From contig NZ_JAYRSU010000008.1 of NCBI RefSeq assembly GCF_041919955.1, positions 2,943-66,942 of the forward strand: 64,000 nt of DNA, given 5' to 3'. This document shows, piece by piece, positions 1-20,509 of the stretch (positions are counted from its first letter, which is position 1; each line of letters opens with the position of its first letter). Under the pieces are notes generated by a model. It was not told the origin of the DNA. It worked only from the letters and a program-made list of their open reading frames with translations, and made no database searches. The DNA comes from Phenylobacterium sp. (GTDB lineage: Bacteria; Pseudomonadota; Alphaproteobacteria; Caulobacterales; Caulobacteraceae). The position numbers and the translations under genes are program-made.

Positions 1-371
1 TCGGCCGGGTAGCGTTGCAGCGTGCCGCTGAAGAAACGCCCGCCGACAGCCTCGACCGCCCCCTTCAAGGCGCGAACCTGACGCGGACTCCCGGTCACCA
101 GATTGATGAAATCCACTCTGGCGAGTCGAGCGCCCGAGGCGCCTACGGCGGCCTCGACCTCCGCTGTCGAGGCGGTGATGGCGATCACGACGTCGGCGGC
201 GGCGAACAGAGCCGCTGGCGTCTCCACCCATTCGGCCCCAGCGTCGACAAGCGGCGCGGCCCTGGCGGCCGTGCGGTTCCAGACCACGACCGGGCTTCGC
301 ATTTCCAGAAGGCGCGCCGCAATGGCCGAGCCCATGAGGCCAAGCCCCATCACACCGATCGTCTTCGTCAT
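1..371 (-). CDS. NAD(P)-dependent oxidoreductase, imine reductase (IRED)-like / beta-hydroxyacid dehydrogenase fold; 3' end runs off the window
   Basis: Not in the ORF track. Manual translation from ATG at 371: MTKTIGVMGLGLMGSAIAARLLEMRSPVVVWNRTAARAAPLVDAGA...FINLVTGSPRQVRAL...GGRFFSGTLQRYP. GLGxMG and VWNRT Rossmann motifs. Confidence 0.8.
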   Translation of the reverse strand, partial: MTKTIGVMGLGLMGSAIAARLLEMRSPVVVWNRTAARAAPLVDAGAEWVETPAALFAAADVVIAITASTAEVEAAVGASGARLARVDFINLVTGSPRQVRALKGAVEAVGGRFFSGTLQRYPA

Positions 372-646
372 GGTTGCGATTTCCCCAAGCAGGCCGCCAG
401 CAGCGCGGTCGGCCCCTTTGAGCCAGGCGCCGGTCAGGGCATCGCGACGTGAACAGCATCGAGGCGCATCGTCAACGAAATATGATATTTATCGTGTAAT
501 TTTGCGCACAAGTCGCGCACCCGACCTGCATTCAGGAAAATTGCCTGTTCTAGATGGATAATTGTCGCCCTACAGTCAGCGTGCCGACCGCTGCGCGACC
601 AGTCGCAACCACCATAGAGCGCCTAAGCCGAAGGACTGCCGCCGTC

Positions 647-2086
647 ATGACCGATCCGTTCCGACTGGACGCAGCAGCCGGCCAGTTGCTTCGCGCCGGC
701 AAGCCCGCCGAGGCCCTCGCCCTGCTCCGCTCCCGACCTGCGCCGACCCAGGCGTTCGGATTGTCGAGCGCACTGGAACTCGAAGCGCTGATCGCGCTTG
801 GACGTCGCCGGGAGGCCAGAGCGGCCCTCGACGCCGCCCTGACCGTCAAAGAACCGACACCGGACGCTCTGGACGCCCTCGCCTTCTTCGCACGTCAACT
901 GGAACTGCACGACGTCTCCAACCGGCTCTACCAGCGCACGGTCGAGCTCGCCCCGCTCGATCCCAGATACTGGTTCAACCTCGCCACCAGCGAGCGCAGC
1001 CTTGGACGCCTGGAAGCGGCGGCGGACGCCTGCAACCGCGCCCTGGCGCTCGACCCCGATCATCGCGCAGCCCTATTGCTGCGCTCGGAAGTGTCGCGCG
1101 CCACAGCGAGCGCCAATCATGTGGACGACCTGAAGGCCCGGCTGGAGCGACGGCTCCCGCCGGGCGACGAGATCGTTTTCGCCTACGCCCTCGGCAAGGA
1201 ACTCCATGAGCTCGGGCGCTACGATGAGGCCTTCGGAGCTTTCGCCCGCGGCGCGGCCGCCCGGCGCCGCGCTCTCCAGTACGACGTGCGGCAGGACGAG
1301 TTGAAGCTGCAGCGCATTGCAGCAGCGTTTTCGCACGCGCCGCCCCAGCCCCCCCCACTGCCCCCCGGCCGGCACATCTTCATCGTCGGCCTGCCACGGT
1401 CGGGGACGACCCTGACGGAACGGATTCTGGGCGGCCTGCCGAACGTCCGCTCGAACAACGAGACGGACAACGTCTCGACCGCGTTGATGCGCTGGACGCC
1501 TCAAGGACCGGACGACGTGTTCGAGCGCGCCGCCAGGGCCGATTTCGTTCGCATGGGGCAAGACTATGAAGCCTTGGCGGACCTCGACGACTTCAAAGGC
1601 AAGATCATCGAGAAGCTGCCGTTCAACTTTCTCTATGTCGGGGCGATCCTGCGGGCGCTGCCCGACGCCTCGGTGGTCTGGTTGCGCCGCCACCCGATCG
1701 ACAGCTGTTTTGCAATGTTCCGCACACTGTTCGGCGCAGCCTACCCGTTCAGCTACGACTTCGAGGAGCTGGCGAGGTACTTCGCAGCCTACGAACGGCT
1801 GATGGCGCATTGGGTGAACCTCCACCCCCACCGCATACTGCCGGTCGAATACGAGCAGTTGGTCGCCGCGCCGGAGGCGATCGCGCCGCAGCTTGCCAAG
1901 CACTGCGGGCTGCCATGGGACGCCTCAGCGCTTGAGATCAGCCGCAATCGCTCGGCGTCGTTGACGGCAAGCGCGGCCCAGGTGCGCGGGGGCATCTATC
2001 AGTCTTCGTCGGGCATTTGGCGGAGCTACGGAGCGCACCTCCAGCCGCTGGCCGATCTATTGGCGAGGCAGGGCGTCACGCTCTGA
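647..2086 (+). CDS. TPR-repeat sulfotransferase family protein
   Basis: N-terminal TPR-like helices, PAPS-binding loop IFIVGLPRSGTTLTERIL, and EKLP and RHPIDSCFA motifs. Start set at ATG 647 (ORF track starts at 554). Confidence 0.85.
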   Translation: MTDPFRLDAAAGQLLRAGKPAEALALLRSRPAPTQAFGLSSALELEALIALGRRREARAALDAALTVKEPTPDALDALAFFARQLELHDVSNRLYQRTVELAPLDPRYWFNLATSERSLGRLEAAADACNRALALDPDHRAALLLRSEVSRATASANHVDDLKARLERRLPPGDEIVFAYALGKELHELGRYDEAFGAFARGAAARRRALQYDVRQDELKLQRIAAAFSHAPPQPPPLPPGRHIFIVGLPRSGTTLTERILGGLPNVRSNNETDNVSTALMRWTPQGPDDVFERAARADFVRMGQDYEALADLDDFKGKIIEKLPFNFLYVGAILRALPDASVVWLRRHPIDSCFAMFRTLFGAAYPFSYDFEELARYFAAYERLMAHWVNLHPHRILPVEYEQLVAAPEAIAPQLAKHCGLPWDASALEISRNRSASLTASAAQVRGGIYQSSSGIWRSYGAHLQPLADLLARQGVTL

Positions 2087-2105
2087 CCGCGCCGCCATCG
2101 CCGAT

Positions 2106-2137
2106 AAGAAAAGCGGCCCGGAACGTGTCCGGACCGC
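2106..2137 (-). terminator. Rho-independent terminator-like hairpin for the minus-strand TBDR transcript
   Basis: Stem GCGGCCCGGA / TCCGGACCGC (one mismatch), 5-nt loop, and AAGAAAA on the + strand (U-tract on the minus strand). Confidence 0.55.
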
Positions 2138-2190
2138 AAGGGCGACGTCGACAATCGACGCGGGGAGAAAGAGGTTCGCCGTGGGCGACC

Positions 2191-2532
2191 AGAGGCGTTC
2201 AGGCCACGCATGATCTGACGCTGGGCGCCCATGAACTGCGAGCCGCTTGAGGTCACCACCAGGTTTGGCACCTGGCGCGACAGATCCTCTACAGTGGCCA
2301 CGCCGGTGCGCGCGACCTGCGCCGCAGCGACCGCGGTGATGTTGTAGGGGATTTCCGTAACGTCCTGCGCGCGGCGAGCGGCGGTGACGACGACTTCATC
2401 GACGGTCGCGCCTTGTCCCGGCGCGGCTTCCGTCTGGGCGGCGGCGTGACCGCTCGCAATGACCATGAACAGGCCGCTCAGCGCCGACGCGCCGAGGAGC
2501 TGCCTCATTCGACTTTTGCTGTACTCCCGCAC
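2191..2532 (-). pseudogene. TonB-dependent receptor, N-terminal remnant (signal peptide, TonB box, start of plug)
   Basis: GTG start with GGGAGGGA RBS; signal peptide ending HAAAQ; DEVVVTAARRAQDVTEIPYNITAV; RQIMRGLNAS. The reading then runs into non-homologous sequence and the terminator, with no barrel. Confidence 0.85.
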
Positions 2533-3023: not shown

Positions 3024-3809
3024 ATGGCCGATCGAGACACCACGGTCCGGCAAATTCCTGCGCCGCTGCAAGGCAAGACCGCGCTCGTCACCGGCGGCAC
3101 GCGCGGCATCGGACGGGGGATCGCGCTGTCGATGGCGGCCGCCGGGGCCTATGTGATCATTTCGGGGCGCGACGAAGCGAACGCCCAGTCCGCGGTCGCT
3201 GAAATCCGCGACGCGGGCGGCCGGGCCGACTATCTGGTGGCCGACCTCTTCGACGAGGCGGCTGTCGACGCCCTGGTGCCGCGGACGATTTCCGAGTTCG
3301 GCGGCCTGGACGTCCTGGTCAACAACGCCGGCATCGACGCGGACGCCCCGGCGCGCGCCTATCCGCTGTCCAGCTGGAAGCGGGTTATGTTCATGAACCT
3401 GGAGGCCCCGTTCCGCCTCTGCATGGCGGCCGGCGAACACTTCTTCGAACGGGGCGGCGGCGCGATCGTAAACATCGCCTCCGTTCTCGGTTCGGTCGCG
3501 ACGGTGGAAGCCGTGGCCTATACGAGCGCCAAGCACGGCTTGCTCGGCCTGACCAAGAACCTCGCCATCGAATGGGCGCGCCATGGAATTCGCGTCAATG
3601 CGGTGGCGCCTGGCCTTATCCAGACCGACATGACCAAGGGCCTGTGGGAAAGTCCGGCCGGGGACGGCTATGTCGCCTCCCGCATTCCCGCCGGCCGGAT
3701 CGGACAGCCGAAGGACATCGGGGCCGCGGTCGTCTTCCTCGCCTCCGACGCCGCCGACTTCATTCATGGCGAGAGCATCACCGTCGACGGCGGCTTCCTG
3801 GCCACCTGA
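3024..3809 (+). CDS. SDR family oxidoreductase (KduD/gluconate 5-dehydrogenase-like)
   Basis: TGGTRGIG, NNAG, YTSAK (YxxxK) and VNAVAPG motifs. ATG 3024 follows a GGGGA RBS. Confidence 0.92.
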   Translation: MADRDTTVRQIPAPLQGKTALVTGGTRGIGRGIALSMAAAGAYVIISGRDEANAQSAVAEIRDAGGRADYLVADLFDEAAVDALVPRTISEFGGLDVLVNNAGIDADAPARAYPLSSWKRVMFMNLEAPFRLCMAAGEHFFERGGGAIVNIASVLGSVATVEAVAYTSAKHGLLGLTKNLAIEWARHGIRVNAVAPGLIQTDMTKGLWESPAGDGYVASRIPAGRIGQPKDIGAAVVFLASDAADFIHGESITVDGGFLAT

Positions 3810-3869: not shown

Positions 3870-4682
3870 ATGCAGGCGCCCGCCCCGATCCCCGAAACAA
3901 GCAGGAAGAAGCGGCGCGCCTCACCGCGCCAGCCGTCACGCGGTCGCGGGCTGGCGCGCTATGCTGCGCTTCTGGACGCGGCCCACGACCTCCTCAAGCG
4001 GGAGGCGCCCGACGCCATCGGCCTCTATCAGATCGCCGAGCGGGCCGGCGTACCGCCTGCGTCGGCCTATCACTTCTTTCCGACCAAGGAGGCCGCCTAT
4101 GTCGGCCTGGCGGAACGCTATTGTGACGAGATCGTGCGCATTCACAGCGTGCCGATCCCAGCCCGCGACATTGCGAACTGGCAGGACGTGTTTCGCATCG
4201 ATCTGAGGCGGGCGATGGCCTATTTCAACAGCGAGCCTTCGGCCATGAAGATCCTCTACGGCGGCTACGGCGGCGTAGAGGCGCGGAACATCGACAAGAT
4301 CTTCTCTCGCAAGCTCGCCCAAGCGAACTACAGCCGCCTCGACAAAATCTTCCACATGCCGGTCATGCGCGACGCGGAGAAGAAATTCGAGCTCCGCCTG
4401 GCGATCCTCGACAGCATCTGGGAGGTGTCTGTTCGCCGGCACGGGCATATCACCGAGGACTACTTCACCGAGGCGCTGGACGCCTGCAACGCCTACATCC
4501 GACTGTTTCTGCCAGAACATCTGGAACCACGGGAGATCCTGGTGCGCGCCATGGAGCGCGACGCCGTGGTCCATCTTCATCTTCCCGGCGACCAGATCGA
4601 GATTTCACCACGGGACATCGAACTGGAGCATTGGAATGGCGATGACGGGCCGAGCCCGCCACCGCCCTTCGCCTATTCGTAG
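3870..4682 (+). CDS. TetR/AcrR regulator, paralog 1
   Basis: [31 protein letters not shown]-domain KILYGGYGG is shared with the 7382 and 13568 genes. Confidence 0.9.
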
Positions 4683-5629
4683 TCGATGGCGAAGCTGTAC
4701 TTCGGGTCGTAGTGGGCCTCCCAATAAGACTCCCAGACCTGACGGGTGATCGGCCCGACTTGGCCGCCCCCGACCGGTTGACCGTCGAGTTCTGTGATCG
4801 GCATGACCCCGCCTGCGGTCGTGCAGATGAAAATCTCGTCGGCATGGTAGAGCGCGTCCACCGGCACATAGGTCAGCTCGGCCTTGATCCCCTTGGCGGC
4901 GGCGATTTCCAGGACCGTGCGGCGGGTGACCCCTTCGAGCACGCCACGCGAAGGCGTCGTGAGCGCCCCGTCCCTGACCACGAAGATGTTGTATCCGCCG
5001 CCCTCGGTGATGTTTCCGTCCCCGTCCGGAAGCAGGGAATAGACCGCACCGCGATCCATGGCCTCAAGCCAGCCGCGTACGAAGTCGCCCCACTGCAGGT
5101 TCTTGATCGTCGGGTCCATAGCGCCCGGCGGCGTGCGGCGGACCGTCCGCGTGACGACCGCCTTGCCGCCCGTCGGATGAAGCTGCGGCGGCATCGCCCA
5201 GACGTAGGGCATGACCATCAGGTACAGGCTGTTTTCATAGCTTTGATACTCGCGAATGAACTTCAGGCCGCGCGTGACGATGAGCTCGACATAGGCGTCG
5301 CGGATGCCGCTCTTGACCACCATCTCGATGAGGGTCTTGCGGACGCTCTGGCGATCCAGCGGGATGCGAAGCCGCATCTTTTCGCAGCTTGCTTCGAGGC
5401 GATCGAGGTGATCGTCGAGGCGGAAGAAGCGCCCGTCCCAAACCGCGGGAACATCGTAGGTCAGGTCCGAGCGCAGGAAGCCCTGATCAAGGATCGGGAT
5501 TCGCGCCTCCGCCAGCGGGTAGAGTTCCCCCTGGATCCAGGCCACGCCCCCGGCCAGCGGATTCTCAGACACCTCGAGCGCGCTCCGGCGCGCCTCGTGC
5601 GCTCCAAGCACCTTCTCCATCGAGTACAT
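4673..5629 (-). CDS. PLP fold-type IV aminotransferase, (R)-selective amine transaminase type
   Basis: [30 protein letters not shown] (PLP Lys), LEGVTR, TTAGG. N-terminal helix MYSMEKVL...NPLAGG and C-terminus YSFAIDY resemble fungal R-ATAs as I recall them. Confidence 0.93.
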
Positions 5630-5657
5630 GGCCTTCTCCCGATCGCCCAGAAAATAG

Positions 5658-5734
5658 TCGTCAAATATCTACGATTATGACGAACGATGGCCAATCAAGG
5701 AGAAAATTTCAACACTAAAGTCGTCAATTATCGA
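5658..5734. promoter_or_regulatory. TCGT-N6-TC(G/T)A motifs upstream of the R-ATA
   Basis: TCGT CAAATA TCTA (5658) and TCGT CAATTA TCGA (5721). Confidence 0.5.
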
Positions 5735-5800
5735 ATAATTTGGGACTGGCAGCGGGCTGCACCGGCTGCGGGCGCATTCCCTCCCGCAGCCAGCCAACAA

Positions 5801-7108
5801 TCATTGGCTTGCGGGGGTCTGAACGGGCGCGGCCTGACGGCCAGCGGGCAGCGCCAGGCTGCAGATGGCGGCCGGCAGGTAGACAAGCGCCACAAAGACC
5901 AGGAAGCCGGAGGGGCCCAGATGGTCGAAGCTCCAGCCCGCGAGGCTTCCGCCCGCCGCGTAGCCGGCCTGCAAGGCGAAGTACCATCCGCCATAGGTCA
6001 CGGGAAACACCGCGTCCCCGAACTGGCGTCGGGTGAGCGTGATCCAGAGGACCTCGCCGGCGCCGAAGGCGAAGCCGAGAGCGAGCGCGCCGGCCCCTGC
6101 GAGGATCACGCTCCGGCTCTCAGGGGCGAGCGCCAGGGCAAAGACGCCAAAGCTGATCGCCGCCACGATCGCCAGCGCGCTCCACCTCGCGTTGAAGCGG
6201 TCGAGCATCCAGCCGATCGCGACCGAGCCCGTCGTGCTCCCGCCGGCGGTCATCCCCAGCAGAGTCGCCGCAGCAGCCGGCGAGAAGTGCGCGCGCCGCA
6301 ACAGCGCCAGCTCCTGGGTCAGGACGGCGATCGAAGCCATGCCGGCGCCGATCACCGCGACGAACATGCAGCCAGCCACCCACGGATTGATGGCTTTCAC
6401 GTCGCCGGACTGGGTATTGCCCGACTCGCCGCGCGCCGTCCGCGCGCCGTCGATCTCGCGCGCGGCGATCGGGTCGCCGTCCAGGCCCAGCCCCATCTCC
6501 GTCGGCGACGATGGACCGCGCGACAGGAGCGAGATGGCCACGGCGACCGCCAGAAGGCCGCCGGCGACGACCAGCGTCGCCGGCCGCCATCCCAGCGTCA
6601 GAACCAGCGCCTCAGTGGCCGGTGAGAGGGCCAGTCCGCCGGTCGAACCCCCGGCCCAAACCAGGGCCATGGCTGTGGCAAACCGCCTGGAGAACCAGCG
6701 GGCCGTCAGCATCGGGACAGCCGCGATCGCGAGGACCTTGCCGAAACCCATGACGATGCGCAGCAGATAGAGCTGCCAGAATTCCGTGACGAAGATCAGG
6801 GAGGCCAGCACCAGCGCTTCGGCGCAGAGACCGAACAGGATCAGGCCCCATGGGCTGAAACGCCGCGTCAACGGGCCATAGAACAGCGCCAATGGAGCGA
6901 CCAGCCACATCGCCGAAACGAGGCCGCCGGTTTGCGCCGCGCTCCACCCGTGCTCCTGAGCTAGGGGCTGGGCGACCACGATGAACGAATAAATGCTGGA
7001 GCCGAAGATCGCGAACGTACAGAGGAAGAGCGCCAGAACGACGCGCCATCCGAAGTAGACGCCACGCCCCAAGGACATCGACGCCGCCGCCGGCGGATAT
7101 TCCGTCAT
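5801..7108 (-). CDS. MFS transporter (OFA-like)
   Basis: About 12 hydrophobic segments; YFGWRVV N-terminus; ARWFSRRFATAMAL and GWMLDRFNAR motifs. Confidence 0.9.
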   Translation of the reverse strand: MTEYPPAAASMSLGRGVYFGWRVVLALFLCTFAIFGSSIYSFIVVAQPLAQEHGWSAAQTGGLVSAMWLVAPLALFYGPLTRRFSPWGLILFGLCAEALVLASLIFVTEFWQLYLLRIVMGFGKVLAIAAVPMLTARWFSRRFATAMALVWAGGSTGGLALSPATEALVLTLGWRPATLVVAGGLLAVAVAISLLSRGPSSPTEMGLGLDGDPIAAREIDGARTARGESGNTQSGDVKAINPWVAGCMFVAVIGAGMASIAVLTQELALLRRAHFSPAAAATLLGMTAGGSTTGSVAIGWMLDRFNARWSALAIVAAISFGVFALALAPESRSVILAGAGALALGFAFGAGEVLWITLTRRQFGDAVFPVTYGGWYFALQAGYAAGGSLAGWSFDHLGPSGFLVFVALVYLPAAICSLALPAGRQAAPVQTPASQ

Positions 7109-7381
7109 GCCGCTTTCCTCCCTCAGGGTCGTTCGCCCCGTTTGCGCGACTAGTATCGTCGCGCCACACAGAAAGTCGACAAAATTTGGCTTATTCCGGA
7201 CATTCGCAGATATTTTGAGCGAATTTGCGCATATATGTCGATTTTTATACAGACCAGGTGCAACCTGGACGAAGGCCTCGCCATGCAGCCCTGACCGCCC
7301 CAGGCCCGCATCCTCGGACCCCCAAGGGTTGCCGGGGAACGGCGATGCCGTTTAGCTCAGGCGCGAGGAGAGGAGACCTTG

Positions 7382-8131
7382 ATGCCGAGTCCGACCACCG
7401 CTGACGACGGCGCCTCCAAGCGCAAGCGCCGCGAAGGGCCGCGGACGCCGTCGCGCGGCCGAGGGGTCGCGCGGTACGGGGCGCTGCTGGACGCTACGGA
7501 GGCCCTGCTTCAGGTCGAGAACCCCGACACCATCGGTCTGTATCAAATCGCCGAACAGGCGGGCGTTCCACCTGCTTCGGTTTACCACTTCTTTCCCACA
7601 AAGGAGGCGGCGTATGTCGCCTTGGCTGAGCGCTACCTCGAAGGCCTGATGGAGGTTCACCGCGCGCCGATCGAGGCCCGTCTGCTAGGCGGATGGCAGG
7701 ACCTGCTGCGGATCGATTTCCGGCGGGCGATGGAGTTCTACAACGCCCGGCCGCCCATGAATAAGATTCTCTATGGCGGCTACGGGGGAATTGAGGCGCG
7801 CAACATCGACAAGCTGTTCTCCCTGAAACTGGCGAACGCGCACTACGATCGGCTGGACCGCATCTTCCATATGCCCTTCATGCGCAATCCCGGCGCCTTC
7901 TTCGAGAACCGCCTTGGAATCCTGGACGCGCTCTGGTCGATTTCGGTGCGTCGCTACGGCAGCATCACCGAGGAGTATCTCCTCGAAGCGCAGAGAGCCT
8001 GCAGCGCCTATACGCTGGTCTACCTCCCGCAATATCTCGAACCGCGCGAGTTGCTGGTCGAGGCCGCCGCGCGCGGCGAGGCGTTGACCCTGGCGTTCGA
8101 CCTGCCGGCGCAGGACGAACCCGCGGCCTGA
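7382..8131 (+). CDS. TetR/AcrR regulator, paralog 2
   Basis: [46 protein letters not shown] upstream; TTG 7379 is an alternative start. Confidence 0.9.
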   Translation: MPSPTTADDGASKRKRREGPRTPSRGRGVARYGALLDATEALLQVENPDTIGLYQIAEQAGVPPASVYHFFPTKEAAYVALAERYLEGLMEVHRAPIEARLLGGWQDLLRIDFRRAMEFYNARPPMNKILYGGYGGIEARNIDKLFSLKLANAHYDRLDRIFHMPFMRNPGAFFENRLGILDALWSISVRRYGSITEEYLLEAQRACSAYTLVYLPQYLEPRELLVEAAARGEALTLAFDLPAQDEPAA

Positions 8132-8359: not shown

Positions 8360-9562
8360 ATGGCTGTGCAGCAATCTGTCGATCTGGCCCAGGAGACCGC
8401 CCCGTCGCAGCGATCGGTGGACGCGCCGTCCGCCGTCGTTGCAGCGGCATACCTCATCGCCCTCAACCAACTGGTCGCGAACATCCAACCGCTGCTGCTG
8501 GGTGCGCTTGCGACGGATTATGGCTTGAGCGACCGACAGCTCGGCCATGTGAGCGCATTCTACGTCGGCGCAGTCACCCTGTGCACCTTGTCGGCTCCAT
8601 TGTGGATCCGCCGGATCAACTGGCGCCTGGCCACGCTCGTATCCGTCGCAGGCTGCGTCGCGGCCTTCGCCTGGGGCGCGACGCTGAACGGCGTGGGGAT
8701 GTTCCTCTTGCTGTTCGCCATCCTGGGCTTTGCGAAGGGCTTCTTCGGCGCCCCCGCGTTCGCCAGCCTCGGCGACGGTTCGAATCCTGACCGCGGCTAC
8801 GGGCTGTCCACCGTGCTGCAAAGCCTGATCGCCGCGGGCGCGGCGGCTCCAGTGGCGAGCTACATCATTCCGACCTACGGTGTCAGGGGCCTCTTCATTT
8901 CACTCGCCCTCGTCTACGCTACCGGGATCGTGGCCGCGCGGTGGATGCCAGTCGGCGCGCGCTCGCCGCGTGCGGCAAGCCTGAGCCCCGCCGAACCCGG
9001 AGAAGCATTGCTGTCTTGGGCGGCCATTCCGCCCCTGGTCGCGGGGTTCGCCGTCGCGCTGTTCGCCGGAGGGATTCTGGCTTTCTGGTATTTCGTCGAA
9101 CGGATCGGCGTCGCGCGCGGCGTGCCCGCACAGACCATCGGCCTGACCATCAGCCTGGCCGCTTTCGCTTCAATTCTCACCTCGGCGATCAACACCTGGC
9201 TGGGGGGCCGCGTACCGAGCCTTGCGTTCGTCGCCGCCGGGACGGCGCTGCTCCTGGCCTCCTACGCGGTTCTGCTCGTCCCGGGCGATCTGGCCTTTGT
9301 CGCCTGCAACCTGCTGTTCGCCCTCGGCTGGGGGTTTGCGCAGCCGGCCTACTGGACGATCGTCCGCAGGGTCGATCATACGGGGCGGCTGTTTGTGGCG
9401 GCTCCCGCCGCCTCTGGCGCCGCCGGCGTCGCCATCGGAATCTTCGCCGGGCCGGTGATCGAGTCGGGCGGATACTCCGGACTGATAGGCCTCAGCTCGG
9501 CGCTGATCGCGGCGGCCATCCTCTGCATCGTCGGCGTGCTGCGCTTTGCGGCGGCTCGCTGA
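8360..9562 (+). CDS. MFS transporter
   Basis: About 12 TM segments; PLLLGALATDYGLS...WIRRINWR, same subfamily pattern as the MFS domain fused to the P450. Confidence 0.9.
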   Translation: MAVQQSVDLAQETAPSQRSVDAPSAVVAAAYLIALNQLVANIQPLLLGALATDYGLSDRQLGHVSAFYVGAVTLCTLSAPLWIRRINWRLATLVSVAGCVAAFAWGATLNGVGMFLLLFAILGFAKGFFGAPAFASLGDGSNPDRGYGLSTVLQSLIAAGAAAPVASYIIPTYGVRGLFISLALVYATGIVAARWMPVGARSPRAASLSPAEPGEALLSWAAIPPLVAGFAVALFAGGILAFWYFVERIGVARGVPAQTIGLTISLAAFASILTSAINTWLGGRVPSLAFVAAGTALLLASYAVLLVPGDLAFVACNLLFALGWGFAQPAYWTIVRRVDHTGRLFVAAPAASGAAGVAIGIFAGPVIESGGYSGLIGLSSALIAAAILCIVGVLRFAAAR

Positions 9563-9598
9563 TCGGGTTCGCCGATCAGCGCCGTCGAGGCAGCCTGG

Positions 9599-10447
9599 CT
9601 AGTTCAGCAAAGTGATCGGGTCGACCATCTGCCCGTCCACCTCGACCCAGCCCATGTGATTGACGCCTGACGACCAGCCGAGCAGGCGCTGAATTGTCTC
9701 CGGATAGCTGGCCACGACGTCGCGCGACAGCGCCAGGTACATGTTCTCCTCCTGGCGGACATTGGCCGCATCGATCGTGATCGTCAGGCCGGTCCTTAGC
9801 TGGTCGGAGGTCGTGTTGGTCCCGCCGGCGTGATAACAGCTGCCGACGAACAGCAGCGCCGACCCGGACTTCATGATCGTGGGGCGGGCCTCCGACATTT
9901 TCGGGACGCGCTCGTCATCCCAAAGGTGGCTGCCCGGAATAACCAGCGTGCCGCCGTTCTCGGCGGTGAAGTCGGATATCGCCACCATGACCTGGAGGCG
10001 CGCCTCGCGGCCATAGGTCGGATGTCGCCAAAGGAAGGCCGTATCGTCCCGATGCAGCGGCTGGGCTCCCTGGCCGGGCCCGATCTGAATGAGCTGGGTC
10101 ACGCCGATCCGAATGCCGGGATAGAACTCCCGCCTCTGGTCTCCCGCCCCGTAGACCACCGGCCGATTGATCAGCGCTTCGGCTACCGGAAGATATAGGG
10201 GGTGCGTGGCGACGTCGGCCATGCGACGCGAGTGGGCGAAGAGCGCGCTCATCCGCTTGGTCTGAGCGCCCGAAAAGGGATCCCCGCCCGTCGATTTCGC
10301 CGCCAGCTTCGGCAGCAGATCCGCTTTCAGTTCGGAGATCGTTTCCGCGGGGAGAAAGTCCTCGATGATGACTCCTCCATCGCGCTCGAGGATCGCCAGG
10401 ACGTCCTGGGCGGTCGACGCCGCGGTCACCCTCTCGACTTCAGCCAT
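9599..10447 (-). CDS. Phytanoyl-CoA dioxygenase (PhyH) family Fe(II)/2OG dioxygenase
   Basis: QPLHRDD (HxD), AISDFTAENGGTLVIPGSH, CYHAGG (distal His). Confidence 0.92.
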   Translation of the reverse strand: MAEVERVTAASTAQDVLAILERDGGVIIEDFLPAETISELKADLLPKLAAKSTGGDPFSGAQTKRMSALFAHSRRMADVATHPLYLPVAEALINRPVVYGAGDQRREFYPGIRIGVTQLIQIGPGQGAQPLHRDDTAFLWRHPTYGREARLQVMVAISDFTAENGGTLVIPGSHLWDDERVPKMSEARPTIMKSGSALLFVGSCYHAGGTNTTSDQLRTGLTITIDAANVRQEENMYLALSRDVVASYPETIQRLLGWSSGVNHMGWVEVDGQMVDPITLLN

Positions 10448-10521
10448 GACAGTTCACTCCCCTACGGGCGGGCCGGCCAGACACGCCAATCAAACATCGT
10501 TAGTCGCGCTACCGCGACACA

Positions 10522-12051
10522 TCAGACCGTTTCCGAGGATGCGCGCAGGACCTGCGCAGCAGCCTGGCCGTCATATCGGAAGGCGGGACCGTCCAGGTCG
10601 ATCGCCGGAAAGGCTTCCTTGTCGGCCAGATAGTCCTGGCTATGGCGCCATTCGGGATGATCCAGGCTGCGCGGAAGTTGCGGTAGCGCGCGGGTCAGGT
10701 AGCCCGGATTGAAGTTCTCGGGGTCGATCCACGGTCGCCGCGGCAGACGATCGACGTCCGACGGCGGCGAGACCTCCACCCAATTGGCGCCCCGCGCATC
10801 GAGGTGCTCCAGCAGCCGGATCACGAACTGGGCCAACAGGTCCGAACGGAGCGTCCAGCTGGATCGGAAATAGCCGAACACCCAGGCGAGGTTCGGCAGG
10901 CCGCTGAACATCATGCCGCGATAGCCGACGCTGCTCGCGATATCGAAAGGCGCCCCGTCGACCGTAAAGGCGATGTCGCCGAAGACATTCATGTTGAAGC
11001 CGGTGGCCGCGATCACGACGTCCGCCGCCAGGGTCCGGCCTGACTTCAACAGCACTCCGTCGGGAACGAACCGCTCGATCTCGTCGGTGACCATGGCGGC
11101 GCGCCCGGCGCGGATCGCGTGCAGCATGTCGGCGTTCGGCAGGAAGGCCAGGCGCTGGCGCCAGGGCCGGTAGCTGGGCGAGAAGTGCGCCCGCGTGATC
11201 TCCGGCCCTACGATGGCTTCGACCGCCGCCAGCAGCTCGGCGCGGACCTCGTCGGGCGTATCGCGGCAACTGTCCGCGAGCGCAGCCTCCTGGGCGAGGA
11301 TGTCGCGCCGTACGATTTCGTGGATCCAGGCCTCGTCGACTTTCAGCGCCCGCAGCCGATCGGCGAGCTCATTGCTGTTGTCGGCATAGGCGAAATAGGT
11401 CGGCGAGCGCTGCAGCAAGGTGGTTTCCGCGCAGGTCTCGGCGATGTTCGGAACGATGGTCGCCGCTGTCGCGCCCGACCCCACCACCACGACCTTCTTG
11501 CCGGCCAGATCGAGGTCGTCGGGCCACTCCTGGGCGTGCACCAGCCGGCCCGCGAAGTCGGCTTTACCTGGCCAATCGGGCATATGGCCTTCGCGATGGC
11601 GAAAGTATCCCTGGCACATGAACAGGAAGCGGCCGGTGAATACGCGGACGCCGCCATCCGCGGTCTCGGCGATCACCGTCCAGAGGCCCGCCTCGCTGCT
11701 CCATCGCGCGTCCGCTACGCGGTGGCCGAAGCGCATGTGGCGGCGCAGATCGTTCTCGTCCACCGCTTCGCTCAGATAGTTCAGGATCTCCGCCCCTGTG
11801 GCGATCGGAGGGCCCGACCACGGCTTGAACCCGTAGCCGAAGGTGTAGAGGTCGCTGTCCGACCGGATCCCCGGGAAACGGTTGGTGCGCCAGGTTCCCC
11901 CGAACGAGGCCTCCGCATCCAGGATAACGAAGCTCCGTTGCGGCGCATCGCGTCGCAGGTGATAGGCCGCGGCGATCCCGGAGATCCCCGCCCCGACGAT
12001 CAGGACCTCAAAGTGCTCCGGCTTGGCCGCATCGGCGATCTGCGCGCTCAT
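10522..12051 (-). CDS. Flavin monooxygenase / Baeyer-Villiger monooxygenase, EthA/AlmA type
   Basis: GAGISG, FPGIRSDSD, BVMO fingerprint FAGRLVHAQEWP, GSGATA, LQRSPTY. ATG 12051; TTG 12060 is an alternative start. Confidence 0.92.
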   Translation of the reverse strand: MSAQIADAAKPEHFEVLIVGAGISGIAAAYHLRRDAPQRSFVILDAEASFGGTWRTNRFPGIRSDSDLYTFGYGFKPWSGPPIATGAEILNYLSEAVDENDLRRHMRFGHRVADARWSSEAGLWTVIAETADGGVRVFTGRFLFMCQGYFRHREGHMPDWPGKADFAGRLVHAQEWPDDLDLAGKKVVVVGSGATAATIVPNIAETCAETTLLQRSPTYFAYADNSNELADRLRALKVDEAWIHEIVRRDILAQEAALADSCRDTPDEVRAELLAAVEAIVGPEITRAHFSPSYRPWRQRLAFLPNADMLHAIRAGRAAMVTDEIERFVPDGVLLKSGRTLAADVVIAATGFNMNVFGDIAFTVDGAPFDIASSVGYRGMMFSGLPNLAWVFGYFRSSWTLRSDLLAQFVIRLLEHLDARGANWVEVSPPSDVDRLPRRPWIDPENFNPGYLTRALPQLPRSLDHPEWRHSQDYLADKEAFPAIDLDGPAFRYDGQAAAQVLRASSETV

Positions 12052-12142
12052 ATTCGACAATTGTCCGCAATGCTGACGAAGCGGCGGCGCCGGCCTGAAA
12101 AAAGCCCGCAGGCGCCGCTGCGAGAAGGGTTCTCAGGCGCGC

Positions 12143-13036
12143 CTACAGCGCCAGATGCTCTTCCAGAGGCCGCGTATGGGCTCGCCACAGGAAGCCGGGC
12201 TGCTCGCCCTTGTAGGAGATCGAGCGGAACCCGAGGTAGGACTGCAGGCGCTGCGGGTAGGTCCGCGCCTCGTCCGCCGTGATGACATGCGGCCACGCCT
12301 CTTCACCCAGGATGATCCCGGGGCTGAACGCGGTCGACAGCACCCGGCGTCGCCGATCCTTCGTGACGTTGGCGCCGCCGCCGTGCAGCACCTTGCCGCT
12401 GATGCAGAGCACGTCGCCGGGGAACATGGTCGCCGGAATGGTCTGGGACTGTTCTCCCGGCGTCTCGTAAGATTCCCAGTGGTTGCTGCCGGGGATCACG
12501 CGGGTCGCGCCCATTTCCTCGGTGACGTCGGTCAAGGCCAGCAGGAAGTTGACCTGGAGATTCGGACCGCCGGGGCCGCCGACGCCGAGGACCTCCATCA
12601 GGCCGCCGCCATCGCGGTGCAGTTCCTGGGGCCGCTCGCCGGGATAGATCTCGATCCCGTGGCTCGCATACATCGTATGGCTCCCCGCCGGCCCCGGCAT
12701 CATCGCAGCCAGATACTCCCGGATGATCGGTGCGTCGTAAAAGGCCTCCCGCAGGGTGCGGCTGTATTTGACGCAGTGGGCCAGGCGCTTGGTCTTGTGG
12801 CCCATGAAGTCGCCGACGAAGGTCTGTCCGCCATCCGAGAAATTGCCGCCCGCCAACCGATCGAACTCGCGGTCGAGATCGGCGTTGATCGCGGCCACCT
12901 CGGCCGCCGAGAGGGCGGCGGTCAGGATGACGCCTCCCTCCAGTTCGACGACGGCGGCGACCTCTTCGGCCGGCGCCCCGAACGGCAGGCGGCGCATGGT
13001 GGCCGAGGGGCGCGCGGAGACGGCGTTCTGGGACAT
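12143..13036 (-). CDS. PhyH family Fe(II)/2OG dioxygenase (second copy)
   Basis: QELHRDG, ALTDVTEEMGATRVIPGSNHW, VLHGGGAN. Start set at ATG 13036. Confidence 0.92.
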   Translation of the reverse strand: MSQNAVSARPSATMRRLPFGAPAEEVAAVVELEGGVILTAALSAAEVAAINADLDREFDRLAGGNFSDGGQTFVGDFMGHKTKRLAHCVKYSRTLREAFYDAPIIREYLAAMMPGPAGSHTMYASHGIEIYPGERPQELHRDGGGLMEVLGVGGPGGPNLQVNFLLALTDVTEEMGATRVIPGSNHWESYETPGEQSQTIPATMFPGDVLCISGKVLHGGGANVTKDRRRRVLSTAFSPGIILGEEAWPHVITADEARTYPQRLQSYLGFRSISYKGEQPGFLWRAHTRPLEEHLAL

Positions 13037-13097
13037 GTCATTCAAACTCCATTGGAGATCAGATGGGGGCATGGAGATCGCGCACCGCGCCCGGCAC

Positions 13098-13550
13098 TCG
13101 ACAAAAATCGTATGGGGAAGCACTCGGCTTCTGACTCGAAAGCCCACGCCGGTCGGGCCGCCCCTTCACGGCCGCGCCGGGGAATCTCACCGTCATAATA
13201 TTGATCCCAGGGGACAAAATGCCCACCGTCGACGGCCTTTTCATCTCGCGCGTATGGCCGGGACTGCAAGACGCCATGTGAGACCCTCAGCGAGTTTCTC
13301 CCGCTCCTGAAACTGATAGAAAATCAATTTAAATCGAATTTCAAGCGGTTCTTGAGCTTTTCAAAGAATAGCGAGCCGCGCCCACGCTCAGCGCCGGGGC
13401 GCGGCCCCACGCGGCGCCCAGCGCACGCCGCAGCCAATCCGCCTCACGAAGCACGAGCCGACAGCCCGCAGACGCGACCCAAGGCCTGAATTCTTGCCAA
13501 GTTGACGACTTTCCGCCATCTCAGACCGCAGGATAGTTGAATAATATCGA
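13098..13550. promoter_or_regulatory. Three TCGA-N6-type motifs in the divergent PhyH2/TetR3 intergenic region
   Basis: TCGA CAAAAA TCGT (13098), TCAA TTTAAA TCGA (13324), TTGA ATAATA TCGA (13537). Confidence 0.5.
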
Positions 13551-13567
13551 GTGGAGAGACTTGCAGG

Positions 13568-14314
13568 ATGGGGACATCGGACGCCGCCGCGGGGAAGGAG
13601 ACAAAGCCTCGCCGACGCGAAGGTCCGCGCACGCCGTCCCGCGGCCGGGGCCTGCTTCGGTTCAACGCGCTGCTGGACGCGACTGAGAGCCTGCTGCAGT
13701 CGACCAACCCGGACGAGATCGGTCTCTACCAGATCGCCGAGCGAGCCAACGTTCCGCCGCCGTCCGCTTACCACTTCTTTCCGACCAAGGAGGCGGCCTA
13801 CGACGCCCTGGCCCAGCGCTTCATAGTGCAGTTGCTGGACGTCCACAGGACGCCTATCGAAGCGCGCCGCCTGAACAACTGGACCGACCTGTTCCTGATC
13901 GACATCGACCGCGGCCGCGCCTTCTACAATCGCCACCCGCCGGCGCTGAAGATCTTCTACGGCGGCTATGGCGGCGTGAACGCCAAGAACATCGACCGGA
14001 TCGCGGCCGACAAGATCTCGACCTCGAACTACGACCGCATGAACCGCGTCTTCCACATGCCGATCCTTAGCGACACCCATCGCCTGTTCGAAGTGCGCCT
14101 GGGAATCCTCGACGCCATATGGACCCTGTCGGTGCGTCGCCACGGCTACATCACCCAGGACTATCAGGATGAAGCTGTGGAGGCGTGCCTGGCCTATAGC
14201 CGCGTCTACCTGCCGGCCCGGATCGAACGACGCGGCTCGTTGATCCAGGCCGCAGAGCGCGGGGAGAGCGTTACACTGCCCTTCGAGCCGAGCGCCGACG
14301 AACTGGAAGCCTAA
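13568..14314 (+). CDS. TetR/AcrR regulator, paralog 3
   Basis: [39 protein letters not shown]. Confidence 0.9.
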   Translation: MGTSDAAAGKETKPRRREGPRTPSRGRGLLRFNALLDATESLLQSTNPDEIGLYQIAERANVPPPSAYHFFPTKEAAYDALAQRFIVQLLDVHRTPIEARRLNNWTDLFLIDIDRGRAFYNRHPPALKIFYGGYGGVNAKNIDRIAADKISTSNYDRMNRVFHMPILSDTHRLFEVRLGILDAIWTLSVRRHGYITQDYQDEAVEACLAYSRVYLPARIERRGSLIQAAERGESVTLPFEPSADELEA

Positions 14315-14328
14315 CTGCGCCGCACCGC

Positions 14329-16398: not shown

Positions 16399-16409
16399 CG
16401 CCAGCCCGA

Positions 16410-16730
16410 TCAGTGCTGGCTTTGCGGAAGACGCACGACCAGGCCGTCCAGCGCATCGACGATCCGGATCTGGCATGAGAGCCGCGAGTTCTCTTCGACG
16501 CCCTCGGCGAACTCCAGCATGCTCTCCTCCATGGCCGTGCGGCCGCCGACCTTCGTGAGCCAGGCCGGCTCCACATAGACGTGGCACGTCGCGCAGGCGC
16601 AGGCGCCGCCGCAGTCGGCGTCGATGCCGGGGACGTTGTTCTTCACGGCCGCGTCCATGACCGTCAGGCCGGCGTTGGCCTCGACGACGTGCGCATCGCC
16701 ACTGTGCTCGATGTAGGTGATTTTCGGCAT
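16410..16730 (-). CDS. fdx: 2Fe-2S ferredoxin (putidaredoxin/adrenodoxin type)
   Basis: [13 protein letters not shown]...SRLSCQI. Confidence 0.95.
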
Positions 16731-19311: not shown

Positions 19312-19362
19312 GGGTCATGCTCCCTGCTGGCCGGTTATATCCGGCTGCATTGCCTAGGTCAT

Positions 19363-19402: not shown

Positions 19403-19427
19403 GGAAGTCCTGCTATAGGCTGCCCGA

Positions 19428-20463: not shown

Positions 20464-20509
20464 CTCAAGGGCACGAAGGATGGCGCTGGCGCGCCGCGCC
20501 CGCGACGCC

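Follow-up and report, generated by a model that had tools for sequence, protein, structure and literature searches.

A predicted (R)-selective amine transaminase in a cluster of catabolic-type genes of Phenylobacterium sp.

Gene content of the locus

The 64-kb stretch of Phenylobacterium DNA analysed here (the window) carries the gene of a predicted (R)-selective amine transaminase (R-ATA), which is part of a catabolic-type gene cluster spanning 16 kb. The features of this cluster are as follows.

within 1..2508 (left edge), minus strand: RedAm-like NAD(P) oxidoreductase gene, first 372 nt; left edge of the cluster
647-2086, plus strand: TPR-sulfotransferase; left edge of the cluster
2189-2508, minus strand: remnant of a TonB-dependent receptor gene, about 107 codons; the receptor is deleted in this strain
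3024..3809, plus strand: short-chain dehydrogenase/reductase (SDR); PF13561/PF00106, generic by PDB comparison
3870..4682, plus strand: second TetR-family regulator; its gene converges on that of the R-ATA and overlaps the 3' end of the latter by 10 bp
4673..5629, minus strand: R-ATA gene; intact ORF with ATG start, 318 aa, predicted fold-type IV PLP-dependent (R)-selective amine transaminase
5630..5800, minus strand: AT-rich spacer of 171 bp separating the MFS and R-ATA genes, from the sequence
5801..7108, minus strand: MFS transporter; same strand as the R-ATA gene and immediately upstream of it, PF07690 with E=1e-26
7109..7378, no strand: divergent intergenic region between the MFS and TetR genes, with a sigma-70-like site (7241-7212, minus) and an inverted repeat (7197-7229)
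7379..8131, plus strand: TetR-family regulator, PF00440; divergent from the MFS/R-ATA pair
8360-9562, plus strand: MFS protein (Pfam); start of the rest of the cluster, 8360..16587
9599-10447, minus strand: PhyH-type Fe/2OG dioxygenase (Pfam, PDB)
10522-12060, minus strand: BVMO/FMO-type flavin monooxygenase (Pfam, PDB)
12143-13147, minus strand: PhyH protein (Pfam)
13568-14314, plus strand: TetR protein (Pfam)
14329-16587, minus strand: PQQ quinohaemoprotein alcohol dehydrogenase (Pfam, PDB)

The order of these genes is identical in sister strains and is not conserved outside the species, but homologs of the MFS, SDR, TetR, PhyH and TPR-sulfotransferase genes adjoin R-ATA orthologs that are at least 76% identical, in shuffled order. 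Eight of the closest genome loci have an MFS homolog (48-55% identity) near the R-ATA gene, and the MFS protein encoded at 5801..7108 is a candidate importer of the R-ATA substrate. TetR paralogs of about 60% identity likewise recur near R-ATA orthologs, the regulator encoded at 7379..8131 being a candidate repressor, and SDR homologs of 54-66% identity adjoin R-ATA orthologs. The cluster of one 84%-identical R-ATA ortholog adjoins conjugation genes (TrbI, AlpA, DUF3363), and more distant orthologs are located on plasmids.

The sequence GGGAGAAGG sits a few bases 5' of the R-ATA start codon. The spacer upstream contains the element (A/T)TTGACGACT twice (5655-5666 and 5718-5729; 4 matches observed against 0.96 expected) and an imperfect inverted repeat (5719-5747), and with these weak consensus matches it is possibly the gene's own promoter or operator. 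The sigma-70-like site at 7241-7212 is the only one on the minus strand of the divergent region and is a consensus match only, the scans for sigma-70 sites and terminators having given counts no higher than those of shuffled controls.

A protein identical to the R-ATA is encoded on nine contigs from other samples, and the runs in which the locus occurs (24 are listed, all of them metagenome or unclassified contig sets and none marked RNA) come from activated sludge, lake water, soil and wastewater, so that the gene is intact and maintained. The initial annotation had placed it in a catabolic island. The neighbouring genes fit the word catabolic, whereas an island is not demonstrated, because markers of mobile elements were not found: there is no tRNA gene in the 64-kb window and no integrase or transposase among the window ORFs scanned with Pfam, the left border of the cluster lying outside the window. 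A search for upstream sequence anchored on the sulfotransferase gene yielded just one contig of 5.6 kb. GC3 is lower in the 12 genes of the cluster (1-16.6 kb; 0.81-0.86, mean 0.83; GC 65.9%) than in 15 genes between 21 and 63 kb (0.87-0.95, mean 0.91; GC 69.1%), but the gap is small, and low expression might also account for it. A genomic island is thus weakly supported.

Family membership, fold and closest relatives

Membership was judged by the definition of fold-type IV (R)-selective amine transaminases given by Hohne 2010 and Telzerow 2020, with motif rules in which motif 1 occupies positions 31-40 and motif 2 positions 95-97 (PMC8048526). The relevant parts of the ORF, all on the minus strand, are listed below, 4CE5 being the structure of the Aspergillus terreus enzyme.

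5573..5620: N-terminal helix, codons 4-19; aligns with the N-termini of 4CE5 and 9K35, predicted helix with pLDDT 90-97
5444..5473: R-ATA motif 1, [HR]-x4-Y-x-[VT]-x-[HSAPT], codons 53-62; regular-expression match, rule of PMC8048526
5285..5293: R-ATA motif 2, [YF]-V-[EAQN] as YVE, codons 113-115; regular-expression match, rule of PMC8048526
5228..5269: active-site loop, codons 121-134, from alignments; carboxylate-binding Arg126 at 5252-5254
5102..5104: catalytic PLP-binding lysine, codon 176; equivalent to K180 of 4CE5 and invariant in 121 homologs

All the published sequence features of R-ATAs were found: a class IV domain (PF01063, residues 60-280, E=2.4e-46 with Pfam), the lysine, both motifs, the arginine and the helix, with no long gaps. 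The four motifs quoted in the initial annotation are present in the 318-aa ORF (LRSDLTYDV at 52-60, YVELIVTRG at 113-121, FIRE at 124-127 and KNLQWGD at 176-182), and every residue it had named as a determinant aligns with 4CE5 as it stated (H55 with R53, Y60 with Y58, F115 with Y113, E117 with E115, R128 with R126, K180 with K176 and W184 with W180). These are not chance matches, because all of them fall within an alignment that spans the full length of the protein (E=2e-158; 319 aa aligned at 63% identity) and contains just two gaps of 2 residues each. The alignment also covers residues 3-30, which pair with the N-terminus of 4CE5, and the impression that the whole protein, including the N-terminal helix, tracks the fungal sequence is thereby borne out. 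Such a helix is typical of R-ATAs and absent from BCAT and DAAT; it is characteristic of the fungal-type clade and not obligatory for R-ATAs (PMC8048526).

Arg126 is at least 90% conserved among homologs. Compared with the fungal and the remaining alphaproteobacterial members, the active-site loop in which it lies lacks 2 residues, a feature common to 9K35 and the Caulobacterales/Sphingopyxis subclade, and the fungal loop KGVRGTRPEDIVNN is replaced by a different, 11-residue stretch in the Phenylobacterium enzyme. Judged from the alignments, the substrate scope could differ from that of the biochemically best-known members, and the shorter loop of the subclade may help the engineering of substrate scope.

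A structure was predicted with AF2 from an alignment of 121 sequences (pLDDT 90.3; helix at residues 4-19 with pLDDT 90-97), an earlier model from 13 sequences with a mean pLDDT of 60 having been discarded. Foldseek searches with this model returned fold-type IV enzymes only, and the titles of the best 23 chains all name (R)-selective transaminases, omega-transaminases or engineered forms of these (TM 0.95-0.97), 9K35 superposing with a TM of 0.97 and an rmsd of 1.5 A at 84% identity.

The ORF might instead encode an alpha-amino-acid transaminase of the BCAT or D-amino-acid type, or an aminodeoxychorismate lyase (ADCL), that merely resembles R-ATAs and is inactive on carboxylate-free amines. 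Pfam recognises only the generic class IV domain, relatives are named 'branched-chain aminotransferase/ADC lyase' or 'aminotransferase class IV' in databases, and the use of D-alanine/pyruvate by R-ATAs brings D-amino-acid chemistry within their repertoire. However, none of the NCBIfam models for BCAT, DAAT and ADCL reaches its cut-off on this protein, the scores being 2-7 fold below, and the motifs diagnostic of those subfamilies, namely Y.R (BCAT), Y.Q and R.H (the DAAT carboxylate trap) and RGY (ADCL), have zero occurrences anywhere in the protein by regular-expression search, whereas both R-ATA motifs are present. In the PDB sequence ranking, 9K35 comes first (E=3.4e-189). R-ATA structures from fungi, Ancylobacter and Shinella come next (1e-130 to 1e-148; 1.5e-141 for 4CE5), and Arthrobacter-type R-ATAs (1e-82), BCAT (1e-50) and DAAT (1e-29) stand further down. 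Clustering with BCAT or DAAT, named in the initial annotation as the outcome that would speak against it, was not observed either: in a neighbour-joining (NJ) tree rooted with outgroups (seven clusters of 40-47% identity, the whole R-ATA clade being one 50%-identity cluster), the R-ATA ingroup, including this protein, has a bootstrap of 100. Motif rules, PDB ranking, fold search and outgroup tree thus agree with the earlier assignment away from BCAT, DAAT and ADCL, and an enzyme of one of those kinds is very unlikely here. The protein belongs to the R-ATA family, of which it has the catalytic residues and the fold. It is very probably a homodimeric PLP-dependent fold-type IV (R)-selective amine:pyruvate transaminase, (R)-enantioselectivity being predicted from homologs of 60-85% identity.

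The enzyme is not new in kind, since an 85%-identical homolog has been solved and bacterial structures are available from Shinella, Ancylobacter and Sphingopyxis; by itself it adds little, being one more wild-type R-ATA. The closest structure, 9K35 ((R)-selective transaminase, released 2025), shares 85% identity over the full length, the same motifs, the short loop and the subclade, and differs by about 47 substitutions and by its host, Sphingopyxis instead of Phenylobacterium. Its PDB title names Sphingopyxis sp., and it is 96% identical to the ortholog of Sphingopyxis soli; no paper describing it was found in the literature search. In Sphingopyxis genomes related to 9K35, the MFS, sulfotransferase, TetR, TonB receptor and DAO plus RidA genes are partly shared in a different order, and no FumI-like gene was found within 8 kb at the Sphingopyxis loci closest to it.

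The fungal R-ATAs are 58-64% identical (AT-omegaTA of A. terreus, 4CE5, 63%; 4CHI, 4CMD, 6FTE, 6XWB and 6SNL) with TM values of 0.95-0.96, and share the N-terminal helix; the determinants are conserved or conservatively replaced, H55R and F115Y relative to the A. terreus enzyme both being permitted by the R-ATA motifs. They differ in forming a separate monophyletic clade and in their eukaryotic genomic setting. The enzymes of Shinella sp. (6XU3) and Ancylobacter lacus (9VQK/9WF1) have the same family and motifs (60-63% identity, TM 0.95-0.96). These types and the bacterial R-ATAs of Hohne 2010 fall in other subclades, and their genes lie in ABC-transporter-linked operons (E1 alpha/beta, SBP, FumI-like aminotransferase, R-ATA), often on plasmids, whereas the Phenylobacterium gene lies in a TonB/MFS/TetR-type cluster. 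More distant, as a distinct subfamily that shares the fold and the (R)-selective amine:pyruvate chemistry, are the enzyme of Arthrobacter sp. KNK168 (3WWH; parent of ATA-117) and its actinobacterial relatives from Mycobacterium vanbaalenii, Mycolicibacterium neoaurum and Pseudonocardia (41-46% identity, TM 0.86-0.88); the alignment with these begins at residue 22 of our protein and leaves the N-terminal segment unaligned.

Place of the fungal enzymes in the R-ATA clade

The initial annotation had called the enzyme fungal-type and had proposed BLASTP and phylogeny as a test of transfer between bacteria and fungi. The bacterial membership of the family is established (PMC7228992, PMC8048526), R-ATAs of Hyphomonas neptunium, Mesorhizobium loti, Labrenzia, Jannaschia and others having been known since Hohne 2010 (PMC7228992). 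The protein is 81-87% identical to orthologs from Sphingopyxis, Caulobacter and Phenylobacterium, with a best match of 87% in a scan of 185,579 representative genomes in which the Phenylobacterium source species was not among the matches, and its mean identity to 18 fungal sequences is 62%. In the NJ tree it groups with 9K35 in a Caulobacterales/Sphingopyxis clade (85% support), and the fungal R-ATAs form one separate monophyletic clade that excludes it (bootstrap 100). The special link to fungi implied by the earlier label is therefore not retained, the closest relatives being bacterial (85% for 9K35 of Sphingopyxis against a mean of 62% for fungi). The clade is widespread in Alphaproteobacteria, mainly alphaproteobacterial and often plasmid-borne, with the fungi as one branch; the label 'fungal-type', which we correct accordingly, reflects which enzymes got studied first.

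A recent acquisition of the gene from a fungus, or a role of this bacterial lineage as direct donor of the fungal genes, could draw on the rooted tree, in which the fungal clade falls within the alphaproteobacterial radiation, on a 98%-supported split that groups the fungi with Caulobacterales and Ancylobacter, and on the intronless A. terreus gene (978 nt for 325 aa). These observations make one ancient bacteria-to-fungi transfer plausible for the family as a whole. For the gene studied here, however, the separate fungal clade and the much higher identity to bacterial orthologs argue against a recent transfer, and its GC3 of 0.84 is that of its bacterial neighbours. Nor is a donor of the fungal branch named, because the deep NJ nodes at its attachment have only 6-27% support; the fungal loops are most like that of Ancylobacter, and the subclade of our protein has its own 2-residue deletion. 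A recent acquisition from a fungus or a direct donor role of this lineage is thus extremely improbable.

Recurring FumI-family partner and possible role

To our knowledge, what R-ATAs act on in nature has yet to be established. The gene neighbourhood proved informative in this respect, as had been anticipated in the initial annotation: a gene for a FumI-family (aminopentol aminotransferase) class III aminotransferase lies within 8 kb of the R-ATA gene at 48 of 80 species-level loci, and directly upstream of it on the same strand at 26 of the 80. Matches to a FumI-like gene, DAO, RidA or alanine racemase were not found inside the 64-kb window. In the sister strain L001, the FumI-like copy of this lineage (64% identical to FumI) lies in the same cluster, about 0.8-2 kb beyond the window start and about 7.5 kb from the R-ATA gene. 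The FumI-like copy on a Shinella plasmid has no close solved relative other than FumI (E=2.6e-133; HemL scores 1e-49). The recurrence of the neighbours is established: taken together, the window and the 80 related loci associate the R-ATA with a FumI-family aminotransferase, uptake systems and enzymes that cleave or oxidise methyl ketones and acyloins. These neighbours narrow the question of the natural substrate to a small set of compounds and knock-outs that can be tested.

FumI of Sphingopyxis sp. MTA144 (6HBS) is likened here to the neighbouring class III aminotransferase and not to the R-ATA ORF. It is a fold-type I enzyme, in contrast to the fold-type IV R-ATA, and its target in hydrolysed fumonisin B1 is the 2-amino group, which sits on a (2S) centre. 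Its preferred acceptor is pyruvate (PMC9858248, PMC3136697), which is also the acceptor of characterised R-ATAs, and FumI homologs of 62-74% identity, one of them from Phenylobacterium, deaminate hydrolysed fumonisin B1 (PMC9858248, PMC3136697). The fumonisin (fum) cluster of strain MTA144 also includes the carboxylesterase FumD and the tricarballylate utilisation genes FumE/F/G (PMC3136697). No Pfam families of esterases, tricarballylate dehydrogenase or CitB-like proteins were found within 10 kb of the R-ATA gene in the window and L001, and the identification of the locus as a fum cluster was rejected, since only the FumI-like gene is shared. We know of no class IV transaminase described in the fum cluster, and no paper linking R-selective class IV transaminases to fumonisin or FumI was found in the literature searched.

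From these gene associations, a catabolic pathway in vivo is quite possible, although somewhat short of probable. An amine would be taken up by the adjacent MFS transporter under the control of the flanking TetR regulators and converted by the R-ATA into a (methyl) ketone. According to the established chemistry of the family, Lys176 would hold PLP as internal aldimine, and the small pocket would take the smaller substituent, typically methyl, of an (R)-primary amine and the large pocket the bulky one. The amine would pass its amino group to PLP and depart as ketone; the resulting PMP would then aminate pyruvate to D-alanine, whose carboxylate would be bound by Arg126 on a loop from the other subunit. 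Enzymes of the cluster that could degrade the ketone are the Baeyer-Villiger-type monooxygenase, the SDR, the PhyH dioxygenases and the PQQ alcohol dehydrogenase, and the FumI-family class III aminotransferase beyond the window start might handle the opposite amine configuration. The clusters of sister genera contain a DAO-family flavoprotein with RidA, or an alanine racemase with DAO, which fits a recycling of D-alanine to pyruvate. Against the pathway speak the variable gene order outside the species, the deletion of the TonB receptor in this strain, the position of the FumI-like gene beyond the window, the missing matches to DAO, RidA and alanine racemase within it, and the Sphingopyxis loci closest to 9K35, where no FumI-like gene was found within 8 kb.

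Because transaminases are reversible, the enzyme may also work in the aminating direction, in a small biosynthetic cluster making an (R)-amine natural product (e.g. alkaloid-like or an amino-lipid) that is exported by the MFS pumps. The nearest solved relatives of the PhyH-type dioxygenase are fungal tailoring oxygenases of alkaloids and meroterpenoids (DhiD, SwnH1/2, EasH, AsqJ), the RedAm-like reductase, P450 and sulfotransferase are typical tailoring enzymes as well, and TetR-plus-MFS pairs often signal export. Yet a scaffold-forming enzyme (PKS, NRPS or terpene cyclase) is absent from the cluster and its relatives, which are linked to uptake components (TonB-dependent receptors and, in other taxa, ABC substrate-binding proteins) and to PQQ alcohol dehydrogenase, acyl-CoA dehydrogenase, acetoin-dehydrogenase-like E1/E2, DAO and RidA, and the family of the partner aminotransferase is known solely from a degradative pathway. 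We consider biosynthesis unlikely and favour the catabolic pathway.

More tentatively, the R-ATA clade and the FumI family may be a functionally coupled stereocomplementary pair, both using pyruvate, one acting on (R)- and the other on (S)-type amines to give a single ketone or acyloin product. If true, this would provide the long-sought natural role of the 'fungal-type' R-ATAs. The shared substrates would be methyl-carbinamine or vicinal amino-alcohol compounds, perhaps lipids resembling 1-deoxysphingoids or aminopentol in Caulobacterales and Sphingopyxis and, in Rhizobiales and Rhodobacterales, a polar amine of smaller size. The product would be cleaved by the acetoin-dehydrogenase-like E1/E2 or, in this window, by the Baeyer-Villiger monooxygenase, and the by-product D-alanine would be recycled by a DadA-like flavoprotein with RidA.

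Family assignment of the amine transaminase

The gene for the (R)-selective amine transaminase (R-ATA) is an intact ORF of 318 codons on the minus strand (4673-5629), which starts with ATG and is preceded by GGGAGAAGG a few bases 5' of the start codon. The four R-ATA motifs quoted in the initial annotation are all present, at residues 52-60, 113-121, 124-127 and 176-182, within a full-length alignment with the Aspergillus terreus R-ATA (PDB 4CE5; 319 residues, 63% identity, E=2e-158, two 2-residue gaps). The determinants named for the A. terreus enzyme all have a counterpart in the window protein (H55 as R53, Y60 as Y58, F115 as Y113, E117 as E115, R128 as R126, K180 as K176 and W184 as W180). 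The likeness to the fungal enzyme had been judged by eye to include the N-terminal helix; it extends over this whole alignment, and an AlphaFold model (121 homologs, mean pLDDT 90.3) predicts the helix at residues 4-19.

When the protein was compared with solved structures, the best match was 9K35 (E=3.4e-189), entitled 'Crystal structure of a (R)-selective transaminase (RTA) from Sphingopyxis sp.', followed by the fungal, Ancylobacter and Shinella R-ATAs (E 1e-130 to 1e-148) and, lower, by Arthrobacter-type R-ATAs (1e-82), BCAT (1e-50 or worse), DAAT (1e-29) and ADCL (1e-18). A Foldseek search with the model also placed 9K35 first (TM 0.97, 84% identity); chains 2-23 were all R-selective transaminases from fungi, Ancylobacter lacus or Shinella, or engineered variants thereof, and Arthrobacter-type enzymes came next (TM 0.87). 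PF01063 was the only Pfam match, and the NCBIfam models for BCAT, DAAT and ADCL all scored far under their cut-offs. The Hohne rules for R-ATA membership, restated by Telzerow et al. 2020 (PMC8048526), were applied as well: motif 1, [HR]-x4-Y-x-[VT]-x-[HSAPT], and motif 2, [YF]-V-[EAQN], are both matched, and YxR, YxQ, RxH and RGY are absent from the whole protein. In a tree with seven outgroup clusters (40-47% identity), the ingroup support was 100. These analyses agree on an R-ATA rather than a BCAT, DAAT or ADCL, and the protein is thus predicted, by every criterion of sequence and modelled structure, to belong to the R-ATA family. The family assignment is correct, and the enzyme is a further member of an already known family.

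The active-site loop of the protein (5228-5269, codons 121-134) is two residues shorter than that of all other sampled members outside its subclade. The short loop, KF[IV]REY--QSYE-N, in which the arginine is retained, is common to the window R-ATA, 9K35 and 15 more Caulobacterales/Sphingopyxis sequences, and the loop is longer in all sampled fungal and other alphaproteobacterial members. The loop sequence closest in look to the fungal one is that of the Ancylobacter R-ATAs.

Relationship to bacterial and fungal R-ATAs

At E<=1e-40 the protein database contains 3630 relatives. Identity is 67-85% for the best 120 of these, and the named ones among the 120 belong to Phenylobacterium, Caulobacteraceae, Alphaproteobacteria and Ancylobacter. 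With no more than two exact peptide patterns, at least 221 R-ATA loci were detected in species-representative bacterial genomes. The top genome matches were Sphingopyxis soli (87%), Sphingopyxis MAGs (85-86%), Caulobacter (83%), Phenylobacterium (81-83%) and Hyphomonadaceae (76-80%), followed by Ancylobacter (61-70%), Mesorhizobium (58-65%), Shinella (60-63%), Rhodobacterales (57-61%) and a few Burkholderiales; 9K35 and the S. soli ortholog share 96% identity. Proteins that fall into 90%-identity clusters together with those of the window carry the name Phenylobacterium sp., and the locus was also found in metagenomes from activated sludge, lake water, soil and wastewater. The Hohne 2010 set already included bacterial R-ATAs of the same clade (Hyphomonas, Mesorhizobium, Labrenzia, Jannaschia and others; PMC7228992), and a Shinella R-ATA structure dates from 2020.

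The entire clade forms a single cluster at 50% identity. The mean identity between the window protein and 18 named fungal sequences is 62%. By neighbour-joining, the fungal R-ATAs form a monophyletic group (bootstrap 100), the window protein and 9K35 share a Caulobacterales/Sphingopyxis clade (support 85-88%), and a 98% split separates fungi, Caulobacterales and Ancylobacter from Mesorhizobium, Shinella and Rhodobacterales. The phylogeny proposed as a check for bacteria-fungi transfer therefore leaves the window gene outside the fungal clade, and 'fungal-type' fits by history only: the nearest relatives are bacterial. In the outgroup tree the fungal branch falls within the alphaproteobacterial radiation, with a support of only 6-27% at the deep nodes. 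One old bacteria-fungi transfer is plausible for the family, and the window gene itself has, judging from these trees, no part in it. The named fungal homologs retrieved are, we presume, all filamentous ascomycetes (Pezizomycotina). The A. terreus gene (contig L093, 10001-10978) has no intron (978 nt for 325 aa); on that contig an SDR gene is called next, about 2 kb 3', with an amino-acid permease beyond.

The gene cluster around the R-ATA gene

Genes of the cluster in the window
1-372, minus strand: RedAm-like oxidoreductase gene, 5' end
647-2086, plus strand: TPR-sulfotransferase
2189-2508, minus strand: TonB-dependent receptor gene, remnant
3024-3809, plus strand: SDR
3870-4682, plus strand: TetR
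4673-5629, minus strand: R-ATA
5801-7108, minus strand: MFS transporter
7379-8131, plus strand: TetR
8360-9562, plus strand: MFS transporter
9599-10447, minus strand: PhyH-type dioxygenase
10522-12060, minus strand: BVMO/FMO-type monooxygenase
12143-13147, minus strand: PhyH-type dioxygenase
13568-14314, plus strand: TetR
14329-16587, minus strand: PQQ quinohaemoprotein alcohol dehydrogenase

The locus had been called a catabolic island. A catabolic-type gene cluster is a fair description, and an island is a weaker reading: GC3 is lower in 12 cluster genes (0.81-0.86) than in 15 genes elsewhere in the window (0.87-0.95), but no tRNA was found in the 64-kb window, and the window ORFs scanned include neither an integrase nor a transposase. 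An 84%-identical ortholog on a metagenomic contig (L088) lies in a cluster adjoining TrbI, SLT, peptidase S26, AlpA and DUF3363 genes (17366-20981), and these conjugative/integrative element genes hint that the cluster can be mobile. A RES-Xre toxin-antitoxin pair is also located there. More distant orthologs are plasmid-borne in Agrobacterium, Shinella, Sinorhizobium and Rhizobium.

Compared with four sister-strain contigs (98-99% identical), 2139 nt are absent from the window, and with them all but the first ~107 codons of the gene for an 808-aa TonB-dependent receptor, located between the SDR and sulfotransferase genes. The junction lies at 2189-2193, where the flanks overlap by 5 nt (compare 13123-15549 of the sister-strain contig L001). 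As the same 168-aa remnant ORF is found between the sulfotransferase and SDR genes in an independent Logan contig (L090), the deletion looks like a natural polymorphism and not an assembly error. Beyond the cluster lies a minus-strand homolog of cytochrome P450 that shares 61-65% identity with the P450 of the Phenylobacterium VNQ135 cluster. Its coding sequence changes reading frame near 18815 (18063-19302 and 16824-18728), and no stop codon separates its 3' part from an MFS-like ORF; the homolog may be a pseudogene with a frameshift or a fusion, or a sequencing error may be the cause.

The MFS gene at 5801-7108 and the R-ATA gene have the same direction and are separated by an AT-rich spacer of 171 bp, in which (A/T)TTGACGACT occurs twice on the minus strand (5655-5666 and 5718-5729). 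A third copy of TTGACGACT (A/T/G at the first position) lies at 13500-13511 on the plus strand, just 5' of the TetR gene at 13568. The motif has 4 matches in the window versus 0.96 expected, a number reached by no shuffle, and could be a -35-like promoter element or a shared operator. The divergent MFS/TetR region contains an inverted repeat (7197-7229) and the sole minus-strand sigma-70-like site of the region (7241-7212), from a scan whose match counts did not exceed those of shuffled controls.

Recurrent neighbours and possible role

In the closest subclade, MFS (48-55%), SDR (54-66%), TetR (about 60%), TPR-sulfotransferase (44-65%), PhyH (53-64%) and TonB-dependent receptor genes recur beside the R-ATA gene in shuffled order. 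The cluster often also includes a DAO-family (DadA-like) flavoprotein and RidA, or alanine racemase and DAO, which would fit a recycling of D-alanine, the expected by-product, to pyruvate.

In 48 of the 80 species-level loci (L007-L086), the R-ATA gene has a class III aminotransferase (AT) gene of the FumI family within 8 kb. The two genes are within 2 kb of each other in 38 loci, and in 26 the AT gene is directly upstream on the same strand. In the sister strain L001 (98-99% DNA identity) the AT gene is located at 18520-19809, about 7.5 kb from the R-ATA gene; this place falls just outside the window, about 0.8-2 kb past its position 1. The sole close solved relative of its product is the 'aminopentol aminotransferase' 6HBS (E=1.6e-185, 64% identity), that is FumI of Sphingopyxis sp. 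MTA144, an enzyme for which pyruvate is the acceptor of the 2-amino group from hydrolysed fumonisin B1 (PMC3136697). Homologs of 62-74% identity, one from Phenylobacterium, catalyse the same deamination (PMC9858248). FumI is likewise the only close solved relative of the class III AT of a Shinella plasmid (2.6e-133 versus 1e-49 for HemL). In Rhizobiales, Rhodobacterales and relatives, often on plasmids, the operon order is conserved: a fused E1 alpha/beta thiamine enzyme, a family-5 substrate-binding protein, the FumI-like AT and the R-ATA. Genes for an acetoin-dehydrogenase-type E2, an acyl-CoA dehydrogenase, a four-carbon acid-sugar kinase-like protein and a class II aldolase are found nearby. 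This layout suggests a conversion of an amino-alcohol to an acyloin, followed by C-C cleavage. No link between fumonisin or FumI and R-selective class IV transaminases was found in the literature searched. The recurrent pairing of R-ATA genes with FumI-family AT genes provides a concrete, testable way toward the natural substrates of R-ATAs.

Loci with recurrent partners of the R-ATA gene
DAO/RidA or alanine racemase/DAO genes, further contigs: L087, 5372-7030; L088, 5416-7040; L089, 18506-20969
DAO/RidA or alanine racemase/DAO genes, species-level loci: L007, L008, L010, L011, L013
Conserved operon, Agrobacterium sp. T29 plasmid: L091, 1-9963
Conserved operon, Shinella sp. HZN7 pShin-08: L092, 1-9978
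Conserved operon, species-level loci: L033-L086

By analogy with known R-ATAs, the enzyme would, with high confidence, catalyse a ping-pong PLP transamination between (R)-amine plus pyruvate and ketone plus D-alanine, with Lys176 as catalytic base, Arg126 binding the carboxylate and a small pocket accommodating the methyl group. With moderate to low confidence, the R-ATA may carry out the entry step, an (R)-specific deamination, of an uptake and degradation cluster under TetR control, in which the FumI-like enzyme would handle the opposite amine configuration. The methyl ketone or acyloin product would then pass to the BVMO-type monooxygenase, SDR, PhyH and PQQ-ADH, or in other taxa to the acetoin-dehydrogenase-like E1/E2. 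Several observations count against this catabolic role: gene order is fluid, the TonB receptor is lost in the window strain, no DAO, RidA or alanine racemase gene was found in the window, and the Sphingopyxis loci nearest 9K35 have no FumI-like neighbour. A biosynthetic role is a less probable alternative. It would fit the PhyH dioxygenase at 9599-10447, the one of the two copies that was searched, whose nearest solved relatives are DhiD, SwnH1/H2 (swainsonine), EasH, AsqJ and SptF (E 1e-25 to 1e-32), which are fungal tailoring oxygenases of secondary metabolism (alkaloids, meroterpenoids) and not bacterial ectoine or phytanoyl-CoA hydroxylases.
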